From: a virus
Taxonomy: Duplodnaviria > Heunggongvirae > Uroviricota > Caudoviricetes
IMG/VR virus record: IMGVR_UViG_2660238176_000005
Length of the DNA stretch: 6,346 bases
Direction: 5' to 3' (one strand)
Shown here: positions 1 through 6,346 of the stretch, piece after piece
Numbering within the stretch: the stretch's first letter is position 1
How the letters are laid out: each line of letters opens with the position of its first letter
Program-made: the position numbers and the translations under genes
The notes under the pieces: generated by a model
Databases searched by the model: none
Told to the model about the DNA's origin: nothing
Seen by the model: only the letters and a program-made list of their open reading frames with translations

Positions 1-119
1 CCATCTCAGTAATACGGGAATACATTGAGATTTTCTACAATCGTCAGCGTCGTCACTCTCGTCTGGGGAATATCTCCCCGGCAGCCTTCAGGGAAAAATA
101 TCATCAGATGGCTGCTTAA
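1..119 (+). CDS. IS3-family transposase OrfB, C-terminal fragment (frame starts at nt 3; stop TAA 117-119)
   Basis: Translation from nt 3 gives ISVIREYIEIFYNRQRRHSRLGNISPAAFREKYHQMAA*. The FYNRQRRHS-LG-SP motif is the conserved C-terminal signature of IS3-family (DDE) OrfB transposases, from memory. Confidence 0.7.
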   Translation, partial: ISVIREYIEIFYNRQRRHSRLGNISPAAFREKYHQMAA

Positions 120-162
120 AAAAAGAACAAATGGTAGTGTCCGCTATTGCCAGTACACCTCA
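1..162 (+). mobile_element. IS3-family insertion sequence, right (IRR-proximal) end, truncated by the window edge; terminus ...CACCTCA at 162
   Basis: Positions 1-162 are the exact reverse complement of 6185-6346. The segment contains the 3' end of a transposase reading frame and ends in CA (the other strand begins TGAGGTGTACTGGCAATAGCGGACAC, which resembles IS3-group termini as I recall them). Confidence 0.7.
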
Positions 163-361
163 TCCATCACCGAAAAAAATTGGCTTTTACACCATTGGCG
201 ATAAAAGCATTTACCTGTATGACCTACGCCGCATGGATGAAATCATGGAGGCTCTTGATAATCGTTCGTCGATGGATTGGTGTGTTGCTGTTCATGATAT
301 GAATGCAGGGTTTGATGAAAAGATTTTGTTCCCCTCATCAGTTGAAAGCACTGCGGGTTAA
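163..361 (+). pseudogene. 3' portion of a gene interrupted by the left IS copy; the track ORF 131-361 begins inside the IS terminus
   Basis: The open frame runs without a break from inside the IS end (ATG at 131) to TAA at 359-361. The stop directly precedes the AGGAG Shine-Dalgarno of the next gene, so this was the upstream member of the same operon. No family recognised. Confidence 0.35.
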
Positions 362-371
362 GGAGTAACAC

Positions 372-539
372 ATGACCACTATTACCAAAGAACGTATTGA
401 ATTGTTCATTAAAAACCCGCTTGAAAACGGGCTTACCCGTGGTGAACAAATGGAACTGGCACGGATTGCGCTGGCATCGCTGGAAGCAGAGCCGGTTGTG
501 TTCTGGTTTGAAAAATATCAAGAAGGGGCTACGGCATGA
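372..539 (+). CDS. Hypothetical small protein, 55 aa ([55 protein letters not shown]); paralogue of the next gene
   Basis: Not in the supplied ORF track, probably because it is short. AGGAG at 361-365 sits 6 nt before ATG 372. The stop overlaps the next start as ATGA (536-539). It shares an MTT-x-T-K/R-E N-terminus and an IAL-SL-AEP motif with the 114 aa product downstream. Confidence 0.6.
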
Positions 540-880
540 CGACTTTTACCAGAGAGCAGTTAATAGCTCACGCAGAGGAGACTATTGAAGCACAGAGACT
601 GTGCATACCGGGCACAATCGACCATGACATCATCCGCACATATAAGATGGATATTGCTGTTCTGGAAATCGCACTGGTATCGCTGGCAGCAGAGCCAGCC
701 GGTAAATTGCATGAATACAAACCAGTGGGATATCAGCGTCTGGTCGATGAGTTAACCATGCTGGTAAAGCAGTTAACCTGGCAACTGAGGAAAGCGAAGC
801 CAGACTGCAAATTACCGGATAAGGCGATGAGTTATCTGGAGCGGAACGGACTGATAAGCGTGGAGGATATTTTACGATGA
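536..880 (+). CDS. Hypothetical protein, 114 aa; N-terminal half paralogous to the preceding 55 aa protein
   Basis: ORF from the track. Start overlaps the upstream stop (ATGA) and its own stop overlaps the next ATG (ATGA at 877-880). Shared motifs MTTFTREQ / [10 protein letters not shown]. No family recognised from memory. Confidence 0.65.
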
Positions 881-960
881 CCTGGCCTGAAGCATTAACA
901 ACGGTAGGAATTGCGATGGCGGTGGCGCTGGTGGTGTATTCGATTTGCCGCTGGGGATAA
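877..960 (+). CDS. Small hydrophobic peptide, 27 aa ([27 protein letters not shown]), predicted single transmembrane helix
   Basis: GGAGGA at 863-868 lies 8 nt upstream of ATG 877. The ATG overlaps the stop of the 114 aa gene. The hydrophobic core [14 protein letters not shown] is long enough to span a membrane. Below the ORF-track size cutoff. Confidence 0.45.
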
Positions 961-1171
961 AAACGGTTTGCGGGAAAAGGAGAGTTAAGTAGAATTGCAG
1001 CGGGTGCTTGAGGCTATCTGTCTCAGGCATGAACACCAAAAGGCAGATAGAGAAAAGCCCCAGTTAACATTACGCGTCCGGCAAGACGCTTAACATTAAT
1101 CTGAGGCTCAATCTATGAACGGCAAATCTAGGTTAGCCTCTTACGTGCCGAAAGGCAAGGAGAAGCAGGCT

Positions 1172-1327
1172 ATGAAGCAGCAAAAGGCGATGTTAATCGC
1201 CCTGATCGTCATCTGTTTAACCGTCATAGTGACGGCACTGGTAACGAGGAAAGACCTCTGCGAGGTACGAATTCGAACCGGCCAGACGGAGGTCGCTGTC
1301 TTCACAGCTTACGAACCTGAGGAGTAA
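1172..1327 (+). CDS. hokD: Hok/Gef-family type I toxin (HokD/RelF-like), 51 aa
   Basis: Translation MKQQKAMLIALIVICLTVIVTALVTRKDLCEVRIRTGQTEVAVFTAYEPEE matches my recollection of E. coli HokD/RelF and the Hok/Gef consensus (N-terminal TM helix, conserved Cys, C-terminal periplasmic tail). AAGGAGA at 1157-1163 sits 8 nt before the ATG. The track ORF 1115-1327 is an in-frame upstream extension. Confidence 0.85.
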   Translation: MKQQKAMLIALIVICLTVIVTALVTRKDLCEVRIRTGQTEVAVFTAYEPEE

Positions 1328-1395
1328 GAGACCAGGCGGGGGAGAAATCCCTCGCCACCTCTGATGGGGCAGGCATCCTCAATGCACCCACACTT

Positions 1396-1425
1396 AACCC
1401 GCTTCGGCGGGTTTTTGTTTTTATT
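1396..1425 (+). terminator. Rho-independent terminator / hok mRNA 3' hairpin
   Basis: CCCGC (1398-1402), UUCG tetraloop (1403-1406), GCGGG (1407-1411), followed by TTTTTGTTTTTATTTT. Confidence 0.6.
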
Positions 1426-1547
1426 TTCAACGCGTTTGAAGTTTTAGATGGTGCCGGAATAGAATCAAAAATACTTAAGTAGCGCGCAGGGAGAAGAGGG
1501 ATGGACCCCGAACAGGGGAGTGCTATTTATCTGGAAGGATTCTGTTG

Positions 1548-1829
1548 ATGAAAATCGAAGAATTACGTGAAATTTTTAGTGAAGATGGCCTCTATACTGT
1601 GCGCGTTGAGAATGGCGCTATTGTCAGCCACTGCCTTCCAGACTACACAATTCTGATAATTCAGCCGTCTTTGCCAGCAGGCACGGGCGGCGCTCTCACG
1701 CATTTAAATCTGATTGGTACCAGCATCCCCCATGCACTGAAGAACAGGCCGAATGGCTCATTCAGTGTTACCGCAGGCGCGGATGCGAGGTTAAAAAAGC
1801 CCTTAGCCTCGACTACCGTCACTGGATAA
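1548..1829 (+). CDS. Hypothetical protein, 93 aa, at the position of rem in Qin-type prophages
   Basis: ATG at 1548 follows GGAAGGA (1533-1539) with 8 nt spacing; the track start 1545 is a TTG one codon upstream. Sits between hok and the DUF968 gene, as rem does in Qin. Sequence identity to Rem is not verified. Confidence 0.5.
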   Translation: MKIEELREIFSEDGLYTVRVENGAIVSHCLPDYTILIIQPSLPAGTGGALTHLNLIGTSIPHALKNRPNGSFSVTAGADARLKKPLASTTVTG

Positions 1830-1904
1830 TCTCCGTCAGGCTCCCTTACTCCGAACGGCCAACGCGTCCGTCCCGCACATTCCAGCAACGGATCTGGAGG
1901 TAAT

Positions 1905-2963
1905 GTGCGGGTATTACTTCGACCTGTTCTGGTACCGGAACTCGGTCTGGTTATCGTTAAGCCAGGCCGTGAATCAATGTCAGCATTCCATAACGGCAGA
2001 ATACTGGTGGAGCCGGAACCAAAAAGCATGCGTAATCTGCCGTCCGGGGTCGTTCCTGCCGCTCGCCAGCCGCTGGTGGAAGACAAAACATTGCTGCCGT
2101 TTTTCAGTAACGCACGGGTGATTCGTGCTGCTGGTGGTGCTGGTGCATTGTCTGACTGGCTGTTGCGCCATATTAAATCCTGCCAGTGGCCACACGGCGA
2201 TTATCATCACAGCGAAACCGTCATTCACCGTTATGGTACCGGCGCAATGGTGTTGTGCTGGCACTGCGACAACCAGCTGCGTGACCAGACATCCGAATCA
2301 CTCGAGCAACTTGCTCATCAAAACCTGTCAGCATGGATGATTGACGTCATCGGTCACGCAATAAGCGGTACGCAGGAGCGTGAATTATCTCTGGCTGAAT
2401 TATCCTGGTGGGCGGTCCGCAATCAGGTGGCGGACGCGCTACCGGAAGCGGTATTACGTCGTTCGCTGGGGTTGCGTGCGGAAAAAATTCGCTCTGTGTA
2501 CAGTGAAAGCGACATCATACCGGGAGAGCAGACAGCCACCAGCATACTGAAGCAGCGCACAAAAAATATTGCGTTACTGCCTCACGTCCACCAGCAACAG
2601 AACCCACCACAGGAAAAGACGGTGGTCAGCATTGCCGTTGATCCGGAGTCACCGGCTCAGTATCTCCAGCGCCAGAAATCACAACGGGAAGAGATGCCTG
2701 TATACACGCGCTGGGTAAAAACGCAGAAATGCATGACGTGTGGCAATCAGGCAGATGATCCGCATCACATCATTGGTCATGGACTGGGAGGGATGGGAAC
2801 AAAGGCTGATGATTTGTTTGTTATTCCGTTATGCCGTAAATGCCGTAACGAACTACATGCCGGAGTAAAAGATTTTGAAGAGAAACACGGCAGTCAGCTG
2901 TTGTTGCTGATTCGTTTTTTAATGCACGCGAGAAATTCGGGTGTTCTGAAGTGGAAAGCATAA
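1905..2963 (+). CDS. DUF968 (YdfU-like) prophage protein, 352 aa, with a C-terminal HNH-like motif
   Basis: Long ORF with GGAGG (1896-1900) ahead of GTG 1905. The C-terminus reads C-MTC-G...DPHHIIGHG...LCRKCRNELH, a CxxC...HH...CxxC...H arrangement typical of HNH/zinc-ribbon nucleases. Same position as ydfU in Qin, between rem and Q. The start codon is uncertain (GTG 1905 or the in-frame ATG at 1977). Confidence 0.7.
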   Translation: MRVLLRPVLVPELGLVIVKPGRESMSAFHNGRILVEPEPKSMRNLPSGVVPAARQPLVEDKTLLPFFSNARVIRAAGGAGALSDWLLRHIKSCQWPHGDYHHSETVIHRYGTGAMVLCWHCDNQLRDQTSESLEQLAHQNLSAWMIDVIGHAISGTQERELSLAELSWWAVRNQVADALPEAVLRRSLGLRAEKIRSVYSESDIIPGEQTATSILKQRTKNIALLPHVHQQQNPPQEKTVVSIAVDPESPAQYLQRQKSQREEMPVYTRWVKTQKCMTCGNQADDPHHIIGHGLGGMGTKADDLFVIPLCRKCRNELHAGVKDFEEKHGSQLLLLIRFLMHARNSGVLKWKA

Positions 2964-3344
2964 ATGACCGAGCGCATAGAATTTGTTTTACCTTACCCGC
3001 CGACGGTGAACACTTACTGGCGTCGTCGTGGCAGCACATATTTTGTATCAAAAGCCGGGGAGCGTTATCGCCGGGCAGTGGCGCTTATTGTTCGCCAGCA
3101 GCGGCTGAAATTAAGCCTGTCCGGAAGGTTGGCAATAAAAATTATTGCAGAACCACCGGATAAGCGCCGCCGTGACCTGGACAATATTCTGAAAGCGCCG
3201 CTGGATGCGCTGACGCATGCGGGGTTGCTAATGGACGATGAGCAGTTTGATGAAATCAATATCGTTCGTGCTCAGCCAGTATCTGGTGGACGTCTGGGGG
3301 TGAAGATTTATCCCATAATGCTTGAAGGGCAGGTCAAAAAATGA
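2964..3344 (+). CDS. rusA: RusA-family Holliday junction resolvase, 126 aa
   Basis: Translation contains PPDKRRRDLDNILKAPLDALTHAGLLMDDEQ, matching the RusA catalytic acidic motif (RRRDLDN ... DD) as I recall it from E. coli RusA. The start ATG directly follows the DUF968 stop. Confidence 0.8.
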   Translation: MTERIEFVLPYPPTVNTYWRRRGSTYFVSKAGERYRRAVALIVRQQRLKLSLSGRLAIKIIAEPPDKRRRDLDNILKAPLDALTHAGLLMDDEQFDEINIVRAQPVSGGRLGVKIYPIMLEGQVKK

Positions 3345-4195
3345 AACTGGAAGATTTACCGAAATACTACTCCCCAAAATCCCCCGGCCTGACTGATGCA
3401 TCGGCCTCAACGTCGAAAGATGCGCTGAGTATCACTGATGTGATGGCCGCGCAGGGCATGACACAGAATCGGGCTGAGATGGGGGTTTCTGCGTTCCTTG
3501 GGAAAATGGGCATTAGTATGAATGACAGAGAGCGGGCAACAGAATTGCTGACAGAATATGCACTCAGTCGGTGTGATCGCGTGGCGGCGTTAAGAAAACT
3601 CCCGGCAGAAATAAAACCGGCAGTGATGCGTATTATGGCTTCGTATGCGTTTGAAGATTATGCCCGTAGCGCGGCGAGCAAAAAACAGTGCCCCTGCTGT
3701 CACGGAAAAAAATTTATTGAAAGCGAGGTTTTTACAAACAAGATCCAGTATCCGGATGGTAAGCCGCCGGTATGGGCAAAGTGTACGAAAGGTGTGTATC
3801 CGTCTTACTGGGAAGAATGGAAAAAAGTCAGGGAGGTGGTAAAAGTTGCCTGTCCGGAGTGTGGCGGAAAGGGTGAGGTTTCCACCGCCTGTAAGGATTG
3901 CCGTGGGCGTGGTGTCGCCATTCATCGTGAAGAGTCGGTAAAACGTGGTATGCCTGTTATCAGAGACTGCCAGCGTTGTGGTGGTCGTGGCTATGAAAGA
4001 CTACCATCAACGGAGGCATTTAATGCTATATGCGAGGTGACAAACCAGATAACACGCGCGTCATGGGAAAAAACAGTTAAGAAATTCTATGATGCGCTGG
4101 TGACTCGGTTTGATATTGAAGAAGCATGGGCTGAGCGGCAGTTAAAAAAGGTAACTAGGTTGATTTTTCCGGAATCTGTGGTAAATTCGTCATAA
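3341..4195 (+). CDS. Late-gene antitermination protein Q (phage 82/Qin QuuQ-like), 284 aa, with DnaJ-like zinc-finger repeats
   Basis: Start overlaps the rusA stop (ATGA). Central region carries CPCCHGKKF, CPECGGKGE, CKDCRGRG and CQRCGGRGYE, i.e. repeated CxxCxGxG motifs. Lies immediately upstream of a terminator and tRNA genes, as Q does in lambdoid/Stx phages. Confidence 0.7.
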   Translation: MKLEDLPKYYSPKSPGLTDASASTSKDALSITDVMAAQGMTQNRAEMGVSAFLGKMGISMNDRERATELLTEYALSRCDRVAALRKLPAEIKPAVMRIMASYAFEDYARSAASKKQCPCCHGKKFIESEVFTNKIQYPDGKPPVWAKCTKGVYPSYWEEWKKVREVVKVACPECGGKGEVSTACKDCRGRGVAIHREESVKRGMPVIRDCQRCGGRGYERLPSTEAFNAICEVTNQITRASWEKTVKKFYDALVTRFDIEEAWAERQLKKVTRLIFPESVVNSS

Positions 4196-4234
4196 CTATG
4201 GGCGTTTTATGCCTGACGTTAGAAGAGTTTCTAC

Positions 4235-4260
4235 AACCCGCCGCCGAGCGGGTTTTTTAT
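4235..4260 (+). terminator. Rho-independent terminator downstream of Q (candidate tR'-type site)
   Basis: CCCGC (4237-4241), 6-nt loop, GCGGG (4248-4252), then TTTTTT (4253-4258). Confidence 0.5.
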
Positions 4261-4288
4261 TGCGGAATTAATTACGGACCGTTATTAT
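4260..4288 (+). promoter_or_regulatory. Candidate sigma70 promoter directly upstream of the first tRNA
   Basis: TTGCGG (4260-4265), 17-nt spacer, TATTAT (4283-4288). The predicted start site falls about 7-10 nt later, at the 5' end of the tRNA (4298). Motif match only. Confidence 0.3.
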
Positions 4289-4297
4289 TCTGCTCCC

Positions 4298-4373
4298 GGC
4301 CCTTTAGCTCAGTGGTGAGAGCGAGCGACTCATAATCGCCAGGTCGCTGGTTCAAATCCAGCAAGGGCCACCA
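4298..4373 (+). tRNA. tRNA with anticodon CAU, most similar to minor tRNA-Ile2 (ileX/ileZ-like; decodes AUA after lysidine modification); Met cannot be excluded from the anticodon alone
   Basis: Full cloverleaf read by hand: acceptor GGCCCTT/AAGGGCC, D-arm GCTC-AGTGGTGA-GAGC, anticodon loop CTCATAA, T-arm GCTGG-TTCAAAT-CCAGC, discriminator A, encoded CCA. Near-identical to my memory of E. coli ileX. Confidence 0.8.
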
Positions 4374-4473
4374 TCACAAACCGCCATTAGCTTATCAGGA
4401 AGAGCAGACGACACGATAACAGGGTTGTTGGTGCGGGGGCGGGTCCCCGATGGCGGTCCATTATCGGTATTCA

Positions 4474-4550
4474 GCGTTGTTAGCTCAGCCGGACAGAGCA
4501 ATTGCCTTCTAAGCAATCGGTCACTGGTTCGAATCCAGTACAGCGCGCCA
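4474..4550 (+). tRNA. tRNA-Arg, anticodon UCU (decodes AGA/AGG); phage argN/argO-like
   Basis: Cloverleaf read by hand: acceptor GCGTTGT/ACAGCGC (one G-U pair), D-arm GCTC-AGCCGGACA-GAGC, anticodon loop CTTCTAA, T-arm ACTGG-TTCGAAT-CCAGT, discriminator G, encoded CCA. Confidence 0.8.
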
Positions 4551-4660
4551 TATTCATTCTTCCAGATTCCTTCCGGCAGAGCCTTATACTGAAATATACC
4601 TGGCTCAGGATATTGTTGAAAATATTTTATGTTTGTCAAAAATAAAAGTTCTGTTAAGTA

Positions 4661-5014
4661 TTGATTGAGTGTTTGTTATACGGTCTAATGGTTTTTTCAG
4701 CATTAAATATTTATCATTCATATGGTGTGGGTAGAGTGAATATTGATGAGGCGTCGGGGTGTTTCATCCTTAGGCAGCGTATTGATATAGTCAATGCAGC
4801 ACGAGCAAAGGCCTTCAGCCGTTTGACAGTTTTGTTCTGTACTCCTGATCGTCTTTCGGGAAGAGACGTTATTATTCTGAATAGTGATGCTATACAGAGG
4901 GTTTGCGATGAGTTCATGGTTGCTAATTCAGAATTATTTGCTCTTGTTCAGGAGTACAACAGAATAGCCAGGACCTGTGGTATGGATGAACTTCGGATTA
5001 CTCATCTGGGGTAG
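4661..5014 (+). CDS. Hypothetical cargo (moron) protein, up to 117 aa, start uncertain (TTG 4661, ATG 4688 or GTG 4727/4736)
   Basis: ORF co-directional with the tRNAs and ending 5012-5014. Of 11 Arg codons, 6 are AGA/AGG; of 11 Ile codons, 3 are AUA. These are the codons read by the two adjacent tRNAs. No strong Shine-Dalgarno sequence and no recognisable family. Confidence 0.45.
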   Translation: MIECLLYGLMVFSALNIYHSYGVGRVNIDEASGCFILRQRIDIVNAARAKAFSRLTVLFCTPDRLSGRDVIILNSDAIQRVCDEFMVANSELFALVQEYNRIARTCGMDELRITHLG

Positions 5015-5094
5015 ATACATATCTGGATTATCACCTGTTACGGTAAAAAGTGATTGCTTACTGTTTTTGTGAATGGCATTGCAGCAGCCGGATA

Positions 5095-5181
5095 ATGTCA
5101 GTGCTGGCTGACGGTGTGCTGGTGGCGGGTGTGGTGGTTGTTGCTTTCCCGTTGCTGAAAAAGAAAACGCCAGACTGTTAG
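5095..5181 (+). CDS. Possible small hydrophobic peptide, 28 aa (MSVLADGVLVAGVVVVAFPLLKKKTPDC); could equally be a gene remnant
   Basis: ATG at 5095 to TAG at 5179-5181; the frame is open back to 5047 with a GTG at 5050. Hydrophobic stretch followed by KKK. Weak ribosome-binding site. Confidence 0.2.
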   Translation: MSVLADGVLVAGVVVVAFPLLKKKTPDC

Positions 5182-5405
5182 CCGGGTATCAGTTAGCGGG
5201 AGAAATTTTTAAATACTTCACAATTCAGGCGGTTGACTGTTGTCTGGTTTGCGGGGAGTTTGTTAAAAGAAACTGGCATGGTGAATCCCCCTGTGCGGAG
5301 GGGCAATCAGCGAGTAGGTATATGGGATAATCGCGGATTCAGGTGCTGGTACTGAATTCACCGGGAGGCACCCGGCACCATGCAATGGCACATAGCGCCA
5401 CTCTC

Positions 5406-5445
5406 CAGCCCCTCTCCGGAGGGGCTGTTTATATTGATTTTGTCA
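5406..5445 (+). terminator. Rho-independent terminator ending the + strand tRNA/cargo transcription unit
   Basis: CAGCCCCTC (5406-5414), loop TCCG, GAGGGGCTG (5419-5427), then TTTATATTGATTTT. Confidence 0.6.
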
Positions 5446-5458
5446 GATGTGAGTAAAC

Positions 5459-5492
5459 TCCTTATGGACTTTGTTGTTTTAGTCCATAAGGA
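5459..5492 (-). repeat. Perfect 12-bp inverted repeat (TCCTTATGGACT / AGTCCATAAGGA) with 10-nt loop, overlapping the 3' end of the minus-strand ORF; possible terminator or RNA stability hairpin
   Basis: 5459-5470 is the exact reverse complement of 5481-5492. The stop codon of ORF 5462-5797 (-) lies inside the stem. Confidence 0.5.
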
Positions 5493-5797
5493 CATATTTG
5501 CAGAGTGCAACGGTTATTAAAGCATTCATTCAATACGTTATCTGTATTTGTAGGGCATTCCTGGCTATTTTTGATTGAATTCCAGAATGTTTTATTGAAT
5601 GGTACTACGTTGTAAATGGTTACAGGTAGCACTTTGTTATTGAGCATGATGCCTGTGTGAGTCAGTGTAAATATACTTTCAGGAGGTAAGAAAGCATCCG
5701 ATTGATACCAGATTATTAATTTTATTTTACTCCATATGACTGAAAAAGATATTCCGCATGATGGCTGGATAACTGTATCAATCACAATCCACTTCAT
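5462..5797 (-). CDS. Hypothetical protein, 111 aa, encoded in an AT-rich island; cysteine-containing C-terminal region
   Basis: Only sizeable ORF on the minus strand that does not overlap a + strand gene. Upstream on its own strand is ...CAAGGAAACTAA-ATG (AAGGA about 6 nt from the start). Local G+C is about 27-30% in the two 60-nt lines counted by hand, against an estimated 60% in a line counted inside the DUF968 gene. Transcribed convergently toward the + strand terminator. Confidence 0.5.
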
Positions 5798-6057
5798 TTA
5801 GTTTCCTTGTTTATGCCTTGCTGGTGATGTTCTGAAAAGTATAAATGATATTTTTGAATGTAAACCATAGAGCAGAATTATTTTTCTGATGTTGTTTATT
5901 GTTTATTTAAATGCAGGGTGGTTTATATCTCGTCTTGTAGTTTATCCATGCATATCTGCTTGATAATCAGGTTTTTATTTAAGGTATGGTTTTGTGTTTT
6001 TTCTGTATTACATGTCAGGTATTTTAAAGAATTATTTTTCAGATGGTGGAAAGAACC

Positions 6058-6184
6058 ATGGCATTTAAACACTATGATGTTGTCAGGGCGGCGCCGCCGT
6101 CAGATCTTGCGGAAAAGCTGACACATAAACTGAAAGAGGGCTGGCAGCCGTTTGGTAGTCCGGTGGCCATAACCCCTTATACCC
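6058..6184 (+). pseudogene. 5' fragment (42 codons, MAFKHYDVVRAAPPSDLAEKLTHKLKEGWQPFGSPVAITPY) of a gene interrupted by the right IS copy
   Basis: ATG at 6058 (an in-frame ATG also at 6043). The frame runs straight into the IS terminus at 6185, so the rest of the track ORF 6043-6231 is IS sequence. Confidence 0.4.
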
Positions 6185-6346
6185 TGAGGTGTACTGGCAA
6201 TAGCGGACACTACCATTTGTTCTTTTTTTAAGCAGCCATCTGATGATATTTTTCCCTGAAGGCTGCCGGGGAGATATTCCCCAGACGAGAGTGACGACGC
6301 TGACGATTGTAGAAAATCTCAATGTATTCCCGTATTACTGAGATGG
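6185..6346 (-). mobile_element. Second copy of the same IS3-family element end, inverted relative to 1-162, IRR facing inward, truncated by the window edge
   Basis: Exact reverse complement of 1-162; terminus TGAGGTG... begins at 6185. Confidence 0.7.
6228..6346 (-). CDS. IS3-family transposase OrfB, C-terminal fragment (minus strand; stop complement at 6228-6230)
   Basis: Mirror image of the 1-119 partial CDS. Confidence 0.7.
   Translation of the reverse strand, partial: ISVIREYIEIFYNRQRRHSRLGNISPAAFREKYHQMAA

Follow-up and report, generated by a model that had tools for sequence, protein, structure and literature searches.

A convergent reading frame in an AT-rich part of a lambdoid prophage raises the question of which gene it represents and what it does for the bacterium that carries it. 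The stretch of DNA analyzed here, 6,346 nucleotides long and referred to as the window (IMG/VR virus record IMGVR_UViG_2660238176_000005), contains a minus-strand coding sequence at positions 5462–5797, with the ATG at 5797 and the stop codon at 5464–5462, that encodes 111 amino acids including a C-terminal QQSP tail. A Shine-Dalgarno sequence (AAGGA) is found on the minus strand at 5804–5808, read from 5808 to 5804 and located 6 nt before the ATG, and purine-rich motifs occupy the same position in diverged alleles. The 111-residue ORF with its own ribosome-binding site, first noticed from the sequence, is thus confirmed. Homology searches, proposed at the same time, place its product in the IraM/IraL family: NCBIfam model NF007393 (IraM) matches residues 1–110 of 111 at 162 bits (cutoff 121), residues 1–78 align without gaps to the crystallized IraM core (PDB 8TWD_A, E 6e-31), and the protein is identical to Escherichia coli CFT073 IraL at 110 of 111 positions, the sole difference being L74S. 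Identity to K-12 IraM is 61%. An exact copy of this 111-amino acid sequence is found on at least 999 contigs under the record name 'MULTISPECIES: anti-adapter protein IraM [Shigella]'. Membership in the iraL group has been defined by at least 95% identity to the complete CFT073 iraL coding region together with a conserved iraL promoter and upstream region (PMC4045071); here, protein identity is 99%, dS against CFT073 is 0.015 and the upstream 260 bp are nearly identical. A Pfam scan of the ORF and 15 family members returned only sub-threshold noise (Nairovirus_NSm, E 0.056) and was uninformative, so that the identification comes from NCBIfam and PDB. PF11183 (PmrD) matched none of these 15 family members in the local Pfam-A scan, although E values up to 10 were allowed, whereas precomputed tables tag all IraM/IraL family members with PF11183. 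Overall, as judged from sequence, the minus-strand ORF is almost certainly iraL (Shigella allele), a prophage-borne paralogue of the K-12 anti-adaptor gene iraM whose product would stabilize RpoS. The seemingly anonymous AT-rich cargo gene is resolved as a known one, real and already described, with a probable function taken from near-identical proteins. The PHROGs family phrog_4407, a full-length match to IraL at 241 bits that is labelled 'unknown function', can now carry the annotation IraM/IraL anti-adaptor.

The window is a lambdoid prophage fragment in which iraL occupies a position between the antiterminator gene Q and the late genes. It carries hok/sok, a DUF968 gene, rusA and the Q gene, followed by tRNA-Met(CAT)/Ile, tRNA-Arg(UCU), a phrog_2873 ORF, a DUF3927 ORF, the sRNA STnc100, iraL and the start of a DUF1737 gene. 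The hok/sok type I toxin-antitoxin system (1002–1177 and 1115–1327, plus strand) is represented by a sok RNA (RF01794, 112 bits) and a 70-amino acid Hok/Gef ORF (PF01848); RefSeq names the corresponding CDS in related prophages hokD. Just downstream of Q, at 4196–4262 on the plus strand, a G+C-rich stem precedes a run of T (ACCCGCCGCCGAGCGGGTTTTTTATTG). By analogy with other lambdoid phages this stem occupies the pR'/tR' position, where Q antitermination would act. It is overlapped by a weak Trp_leader match of 25.7 bits, below the threshold. The 117-amino acid ORF at 4661–5014 (plus strand, 41% G+C) matches phrog_2873, a family of unknown function, over its full length at 234 bits and carries no RefSeq annotation in CFT073. 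The 43-amino acid DUF3927/TciB-like ORF at 5050–5181 (plus strand) belongs to phrog_1470, assigned to the category 'moron'. On the far side of iraL, the 5' part of the DUF1737 gene (6058–6184, plus strand) marks the start of the late, lysis-side genes and is cut after about 42 codons by an IS3-family element beginning at 6185. Both ends of the window (1–162 and 6185–6346) are perfect inverted copies of the 3' end of an IS3-family transposase gene plus terminal repeat TGAGGTGTACTGGC, which probably resembles IS600. The window may be a complete contig from short reads that stops in repeat copies, or else a fragment truly bracketed by IS elements. The transposase fragment at the right end is also the exception to the view that iraL is the only convincing minus-strand gene, a view that otherwise holds for proteins; the remaining minus-strand ORFs overlap plus-strand genes or tRNAs.

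The IraL protein retains most residues of the RssB interface and ends in a conserved cysteine-containing tail. Fifteen IraM residues have been named as RssB contacts (clusters I–III plus Pro66; PMC10844676). In an alignment to K-12 IraM, 11 of the 15 are identical in the window protein (I4, I6, W22, K26, I42, C14, F18, W30, I61, Y62 and P66), three carry conservative changes (T13S, L75I and I64V) and one differs (H63N). The L74S substitution of the Shigella allele is non-conservative, adjoins contact residue 75 and could alter affinity. An AlphaFold2 model built from a 15-sequence alignment is of low confidence, with a mean pLDDT of 51.5 and values below 40 for residues 77–111, and the fold is for this reason taken solely from the sequence alignment to 8TWD; within its low confidence, the model contains strands followed by one helix at 69–76, as described for IraM. 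IraL would accordingly consist of a PmrD-like beta-barrel core (residues ca. 1–78) and a four-cysteine tail. The tail, with the spacing C-x10-C-x4-C-x4-C, corresponds to residues 79–111 in the family alignment (5462–5560, minus strand). Across 15 family members that are 53–97% identical to the window protein, C81, P82, C92, C97, C102, P103 and G105 are invariant, and the cysteine-containing C-terminus described by the earlier note is thereby extended to four cysteines shared by the whole alignment. For crystallography this tail was cut off, leaving IraM 1–78, because it was proteolytically unstable (PMC10844676). Neither 'cysteine' nor 'zinc' occurs as a word in the two structural and biochemical papers searched. 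The invariant four-cysteine tail may represent a metal or redox switch controlling the stability of IraL and IraM.

Could the frame be a chance opening in AT-rich non-coding DNA, with no gene behind it, or a decaying copy left in a broken prophage? AT-rich DNA can yield spurious ORFs, although it is poor in some stop-free frames, and RefSeq lists a doubtful pseudo-CDS next door, antisense to STnc100. Against a chance opening stand the match over the full length to a curated family, with a score exceeding the cutoff, the match to a solved structure and the protein-level phenotypes that have been published (PMC4045071). Conservation of the frame, suggested earlier as a check on this very point, was assessed in nine alleles: the window, CFT073, phage 640R1, an allele of 88% identity, two Stx2-phage alleles, an Escherichia albertii allele, an allele of 60% identity and K-12 iraM. 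No internal frame-breaking indels were found among the nine, and Nei-Gojobori dN/dS ranges from 0.08 to 0.28 over 33 computable allele pairs, some of them with dS > 1. With the frame preserved even where dS exceeds 1 and purifying selection acting across alleles, a chance ORF is excluded for all practical purposes. The idea that the Shigella allele is a non-functional copy draws on the state of the prophage, a 6-kb fragment between IS3-family ends in which the adjoining DUF1737 gene is interrupted by an IS at 6185, and on the non-conservative nature of L74S beside contact residue 75. Yet ORF, ribosome-binding site and promoter are all intact, the same allele is fixed across Shigella (at least 999 contigs), and deletion of iraL in Shigella sonnei lowers sigma-S (PMC4045071). 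The dN/dS between the window and CFT073 iraL is 0.26, a value resting on very few changes. Decay is thus very unlikely, and an intact iraL gene under purifying selection is the preferred reading.

The iraL gene possesses its own promoter directed against the phage late operon. The 5'-RACE sequence published for CFT073 iraL, ACATCACCAGCAAGGCATAAACAAGGAAACCA (PMC4045071), maps uniquely in the window, from 5830 to 5799, with 31 of 32 bases matching and one mismatch, while shuffled sequences gave 0 matches. The end of the RACE sequence at 5830 places the transcription start at this position and results in a leader of 33 nt (5' UTR, 5798–5830, minus strand), the start being transferred from the CFT073 data. 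A putative core promoter at 5838–5864 (minus strand) would be composed of the -10 hexamer TATACT (5843 to 5838), located 7 nt before the start site, and the candidate -35 hexamer TTTACA (5864 to 5859), separated by a non-canonical spacer of 15 nt. The promoter region equals that of CFT073 except for the base at -1, and from the -35 candidate to the ATG two positions differ in total. A -10-like element (TATACT, TATGAT or TATAA) is preserved in diverged alleles. Owing to the short spacer, a consensus promoter scan does not call the RACE-supported iraL promoter. The two minus-strand promoters that the scan did call, at 5905–5877 and 5746–5719, were set aside, 3.1 being expected by chance. The notion of an independently promoted gene, put forward in the earlier note, is borne out by the published start site mapping to 5830.

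The published properties of IraL indicate a function in stabilizing RpoS in growing cells. The gene corresponds to CFT073 c1429, formerly ycgW, and was characterized by Hryckowian et al. (2014, mBio; PMC4045071). [quoted passage not shown] By analogy with the 110/111-identical CFT073 protein, IraL of the window would likewise bind RssB and stabilize RpoS. In the proposed mechanism, a sigma-70-type promoter with its start at 5830 would drive iraL in the direction opposite to the late operon, and this antisense arrangement with a promoter of its own should allow expression from a repressed prophage. IraL would then bind the response-regulator-like adaptor RssB and stop the delivery of RpoS (sigma-S) to ClpXP. 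RpoS would thereby be stabilized already during exponential growth, priming the general stress response of the lysogen. Following induction, Q-modified polymerase running through STnc100 would be expected to transcribe iraL in antisense. The gene has its own start site, lies antisense to the late operon, has a G+C content of 32% against 50% and is patchily present, in about 26% of complete E. coli genomes and a minority of phage records, which supports its classification, by analogy, as a phage moron and a factor of the lysogenic-conversion type that would change host physiology. Of the two roles originally considered for a cargo gene at this position, lysogenic conversion agrees with the promoter, the counter-orientation and the published effect on RpoS. 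IraL is a horizontally acquired factor raising RpoS in growing Shigella and uropathogenic E. coli; in the course of an infection it may prime these bacteria for resistance to stress and acid.

The second role, anti-phage defence, and a regulation like that of K-12 iraM have to be weighed against this assignment. A counter-oriented moron position in the late region is typical of defence and superinfection-exclusion genes and phrog_4407 is listed as 'unknown function', but PADLOC returned 0 families at E ≤ 0.01 and the family has a defined, structurally characterized host target, RssB. With RpoS stabilization as the known function, a defence gene is extremely improbable and this part of the original suggestion is abandoned. 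If the gene behaved like K-12 iraM, it would be silent unless PhoP/PhoQ induced it under Mg2+ starvation. The two proteins are homologous, with 61% identity, and a direct repeat resembling a PhoP box, TGTTTATTGTTTATTTA, is present at 5893–5909, 63–79 bp upstream of the start site. A search for the PhoP box consensus (T/G)GTTTA-N5-(T/G)GTTTA found this one match (one mismatch) where 1.9 were expected from shuffles, which is not above chance. In addition, the upstream DNA does not align to the K-12 iraM upstream region, and the promoter is nearly identical to that of CFT073 iraL, a gene expressed in log phase without stress (PMC4045071). We consider PhoP-dependent silence highly unlikely and favor an iraL-type promoter active in unstressed log phase.

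The upstream DNA and published expression data bear on the regulation of iraL. The intergenic region from which iraL and the DUF1737 gene diverge (5798–6057, 260 bp, 29.6% G+C) includes the iraL promoter and upstream regulatory DNA. Given the 30% G+C of the promoter region and a study on H-NS and iraM that was reportedly published by Battesti et al. in 2012, control by H-NS is plausible, and 5798–6057 is a likely H-NS target. The upstream region is at least 96% conserved among iraL strains (PMC4045071). In CFT073, a later study reported that the iraL transcript rises upon a shift from 23 to 37 °C, and IraL levels were likewise reported in later work to rise in a fur mutant.

Base composition and allele divergence argue for inheritance of iraL within a larger phage module. 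G+C content is 32.0% over 5462–6042, 34.5% in the ORF and 29.6% in the intergenic region 5798–6057, compared with 50.0% in the early region (164–4560). The G+C of about 27–30% first estimated for the island by hand therefore fits the intergenic part and is slightly too low for the ORF. Low G+C, between 34 and 44%, is found throughout the IraM/IraL family, and synonymous distances between alleles are saturated (dS > 1). Identity to CFT073 reaches 98.1% over the block at 4256–6187, which comprises the tRNAs, STnc100, iraL and the DUF1737 start, whereas the early/Q region (1638–4262) shares only 89.6% identity with the CFT073 potB prophage. At the sequence level, this mosaic identity indicates that modules have probably been exchanged, the Q/pR' boundary being the junction, and the contrast between block and early region suggests that iraL travels within a larger conserved late-region module including STnc100. 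A separate and probably recent acquisition of the AT-rich island, as initially suggested, is not supported in view of the family-wide low G+C, of dS > 1 and of the conservation of 4256–6187 as a unit.

The 3' end of iraL contains an allele-specific hairpin that overlaps the coding sequence. The inverted repeat at 5459–5492 (minus strand) consists of a 12-bp stem with arms at 5459–5470 and 5481–5492, complementary at 12 of 12 positions, and a 10-nt loop. No other perfect inverted repeat in the window is as long, and a length of 12 bp was reached in none of 300 dinucleotide shuffles. Transcribed in the direction of iraL, the repeat has a folding energy of -17.5 kcal/mol (z = -4.1). The repeat is thus as real as the earlier note described it; its position differs in that it spans the last iraL codons (PYGLKQQSP) and the stop codon and does not lie downstream of the ORF. 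With 5 G-C pairs among 12, a 10-nt loop and a 3' sequence, GUUUACUCAC, containing only 3 U, the hairpin lacks the character of a terminator, and a terminator scan calls it on neither strand. It is perfect only in the allele shared by CFT073, Shigella and 640R1; pairs are lost without compensation in the alleles of 88% and 75% identity, and the structure is absent in K-12 iraM. A canonical Rho-independent terminator is ruled out by the U-poor 3' side, the composition and the non-conservation, and a conserved RNA structure by the uncompensated decay in the 88% and 75% alleles and the absence in K-12. Among 1432 complete E. coli genomes carrying the hairpin 3' end, 1000 are identical over 48 nt. 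All three variant genomes sampled have a synonymous change (GGA to GGG) at 5483, the common variant in E. coli, which would leave a G-U pair in the iraL mRNA; this agrees with an mRNA structure without being diagnostic of one. The hairpin could possibly act as a stabilizer of the 3' end or as a weak terminator.

The convergent partner of iraL is the sRNA STnc100. This RNA (RF02076) is located at 5247–5436 on the plus strand, scores 132 bits against a gathering score of 47, has its Rho-independent terminator stem at 5406–5427 and ends 25 nt from the iraL stop. The plus-strand terminator that the hairpin was thought to abut does exist, though it ends this sRNA and no protein gene. Its use as a bidirectional terminator for iraL is unsupported, as the minus strand has no U-tract after the stem, and the terminator scan found no canonical U-tract terminator in the direction of iraL. 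In consequence, iraL mRNA would read antisense into STnc100. Three diverged loci share with the window this convergence of STnc100 with an IraL-type gene; the gaps are 7–36 nt, and one of the pairs is directly downstream of stx2B. In these loci, STnc100 lies at 3780–3995 in L004, 3373–3582 in L007 and 2481–2693 in L006. The four alleles with a convergent STnc100 have diverged to 69–98% identity. This recurrence leaves some room for the speculative proposal, which we regard as rather unlikely, that iraL and STnc100 are inherited together as a convergent module, with transcripts overlapping at the 3' ends, and that this couples prophage sRNA expression to RpoS stability. In such a module, the 3' end of iraL mRNA would be shaped jointly by the shared G+C-rich stem and by the 12-bp hairpin peculiar to this allele, and, if the proposal were true, Q-antiterminated late transcription after induction would read through iraL in antisense and silence it. 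STnc100 neighborhoods are covered in a preprint of 2026 on prophage sRNAs (10.64898/2026.05.13.724894), which does not mention iraM or anti-adaptors, and we did not find the pairing discussed.

The iraL block occurs in about a quarter of complete E. coli genomes, and the family was found in few genera in a broader survey. A survey of presence and absence, proposed in the earlier note for related prophages, detected the iraL block in 1428–1432 of 5426 complete E. coli genomes (ca. 26%). Phage records include four with a near-identical iraL, and an allele group of about 74% identity occurs in some 330, mostly Stx-converting phages. In a scan of one genome per species, the family was found in Escherichia, Shigella and one Citrobacter. 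The genomic position is constant: in every relative examined, the IraM/IraL gene lies antisense between Q, the tRNAs or, where present, stx2AB on one side and the start of DUF1737 or nanS-p on the other.

The closest known system is CFT073 IraL (WP_000871291.1), which shares 110 of 111 amino acids, the promoter, the mRNA 5' end and the 12-bp hairpin with the window. The CFT073 potB prophage also has the same slot, with Q, tRNAs, DUF3927, STnc100, antisense iraL, DUF1737 and holin in this order. In contrast, the window carries L74S, which defines the Shigella allele, an IS3-bounded prophage fragment and an early region of only 89.6% identity. The iraM-like genes of Stx2 phages, such as the one annotated 'iraM: RpoS stabilzer during Mg starvation' in LC567834, belong to the same family, have the same antisense orientation and lie directly after a STnc100 copy and directly before a DUF1737 or nanS-p gene. 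They differ in forming a distinct allele group of ca. 69–74% nucleotide identity, most of whose members encode 106–107 amino acids without the QQSP tail, and in their location downstream of stx2AB, immediately after stx2B. We found no functional study of these Stx2-phage alleles in the literature; Stx2 phages thus carry a diverged, unstudied allele right after stx2B and beside a STnc100 copy. PmrD, a connector protein that binds the response regulator PmrA, resembles the family in structure, the IraM core superimposing on 4HN7 at ca. 1 Å rmsd and both proteins binding a receiver domain (PMC10844676). Differences are found in the target, PmrA instead of RssB, in the missing cysteine-rich tail of PmrD and in the absence of a local Pfam match to IraL.

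K-12 IraM (b1160) is an RssB anti-adaptor induced by Mg2+ starvation through PhoPQ, and the structure of its complex with RssB has been determined (8TWD; PMC10844676). The 61% identity between IraM and the window protein extends without gaps over 107 amino acids, most RssB contacts are shared, and the four C-terminal cysteines and a CPYG motif are present in both; iraM also has a low G+C content (34%). The window gene differs from iraM in its unrelated upstream DNA, the QQSP extension of four residues and the 3' hairpin. [quoted passage not shown] K-12 iraM is located just outside the annotated e14 boundary, beside the DUF1398 gene ycgX (L002, 3681–5108). Other DUF1398 genes (ybcV and ydfO) are found in the lambdoid prophages of L001 and L003, which suggests that K-12 iraM, too, sits in an old prophage remnant.
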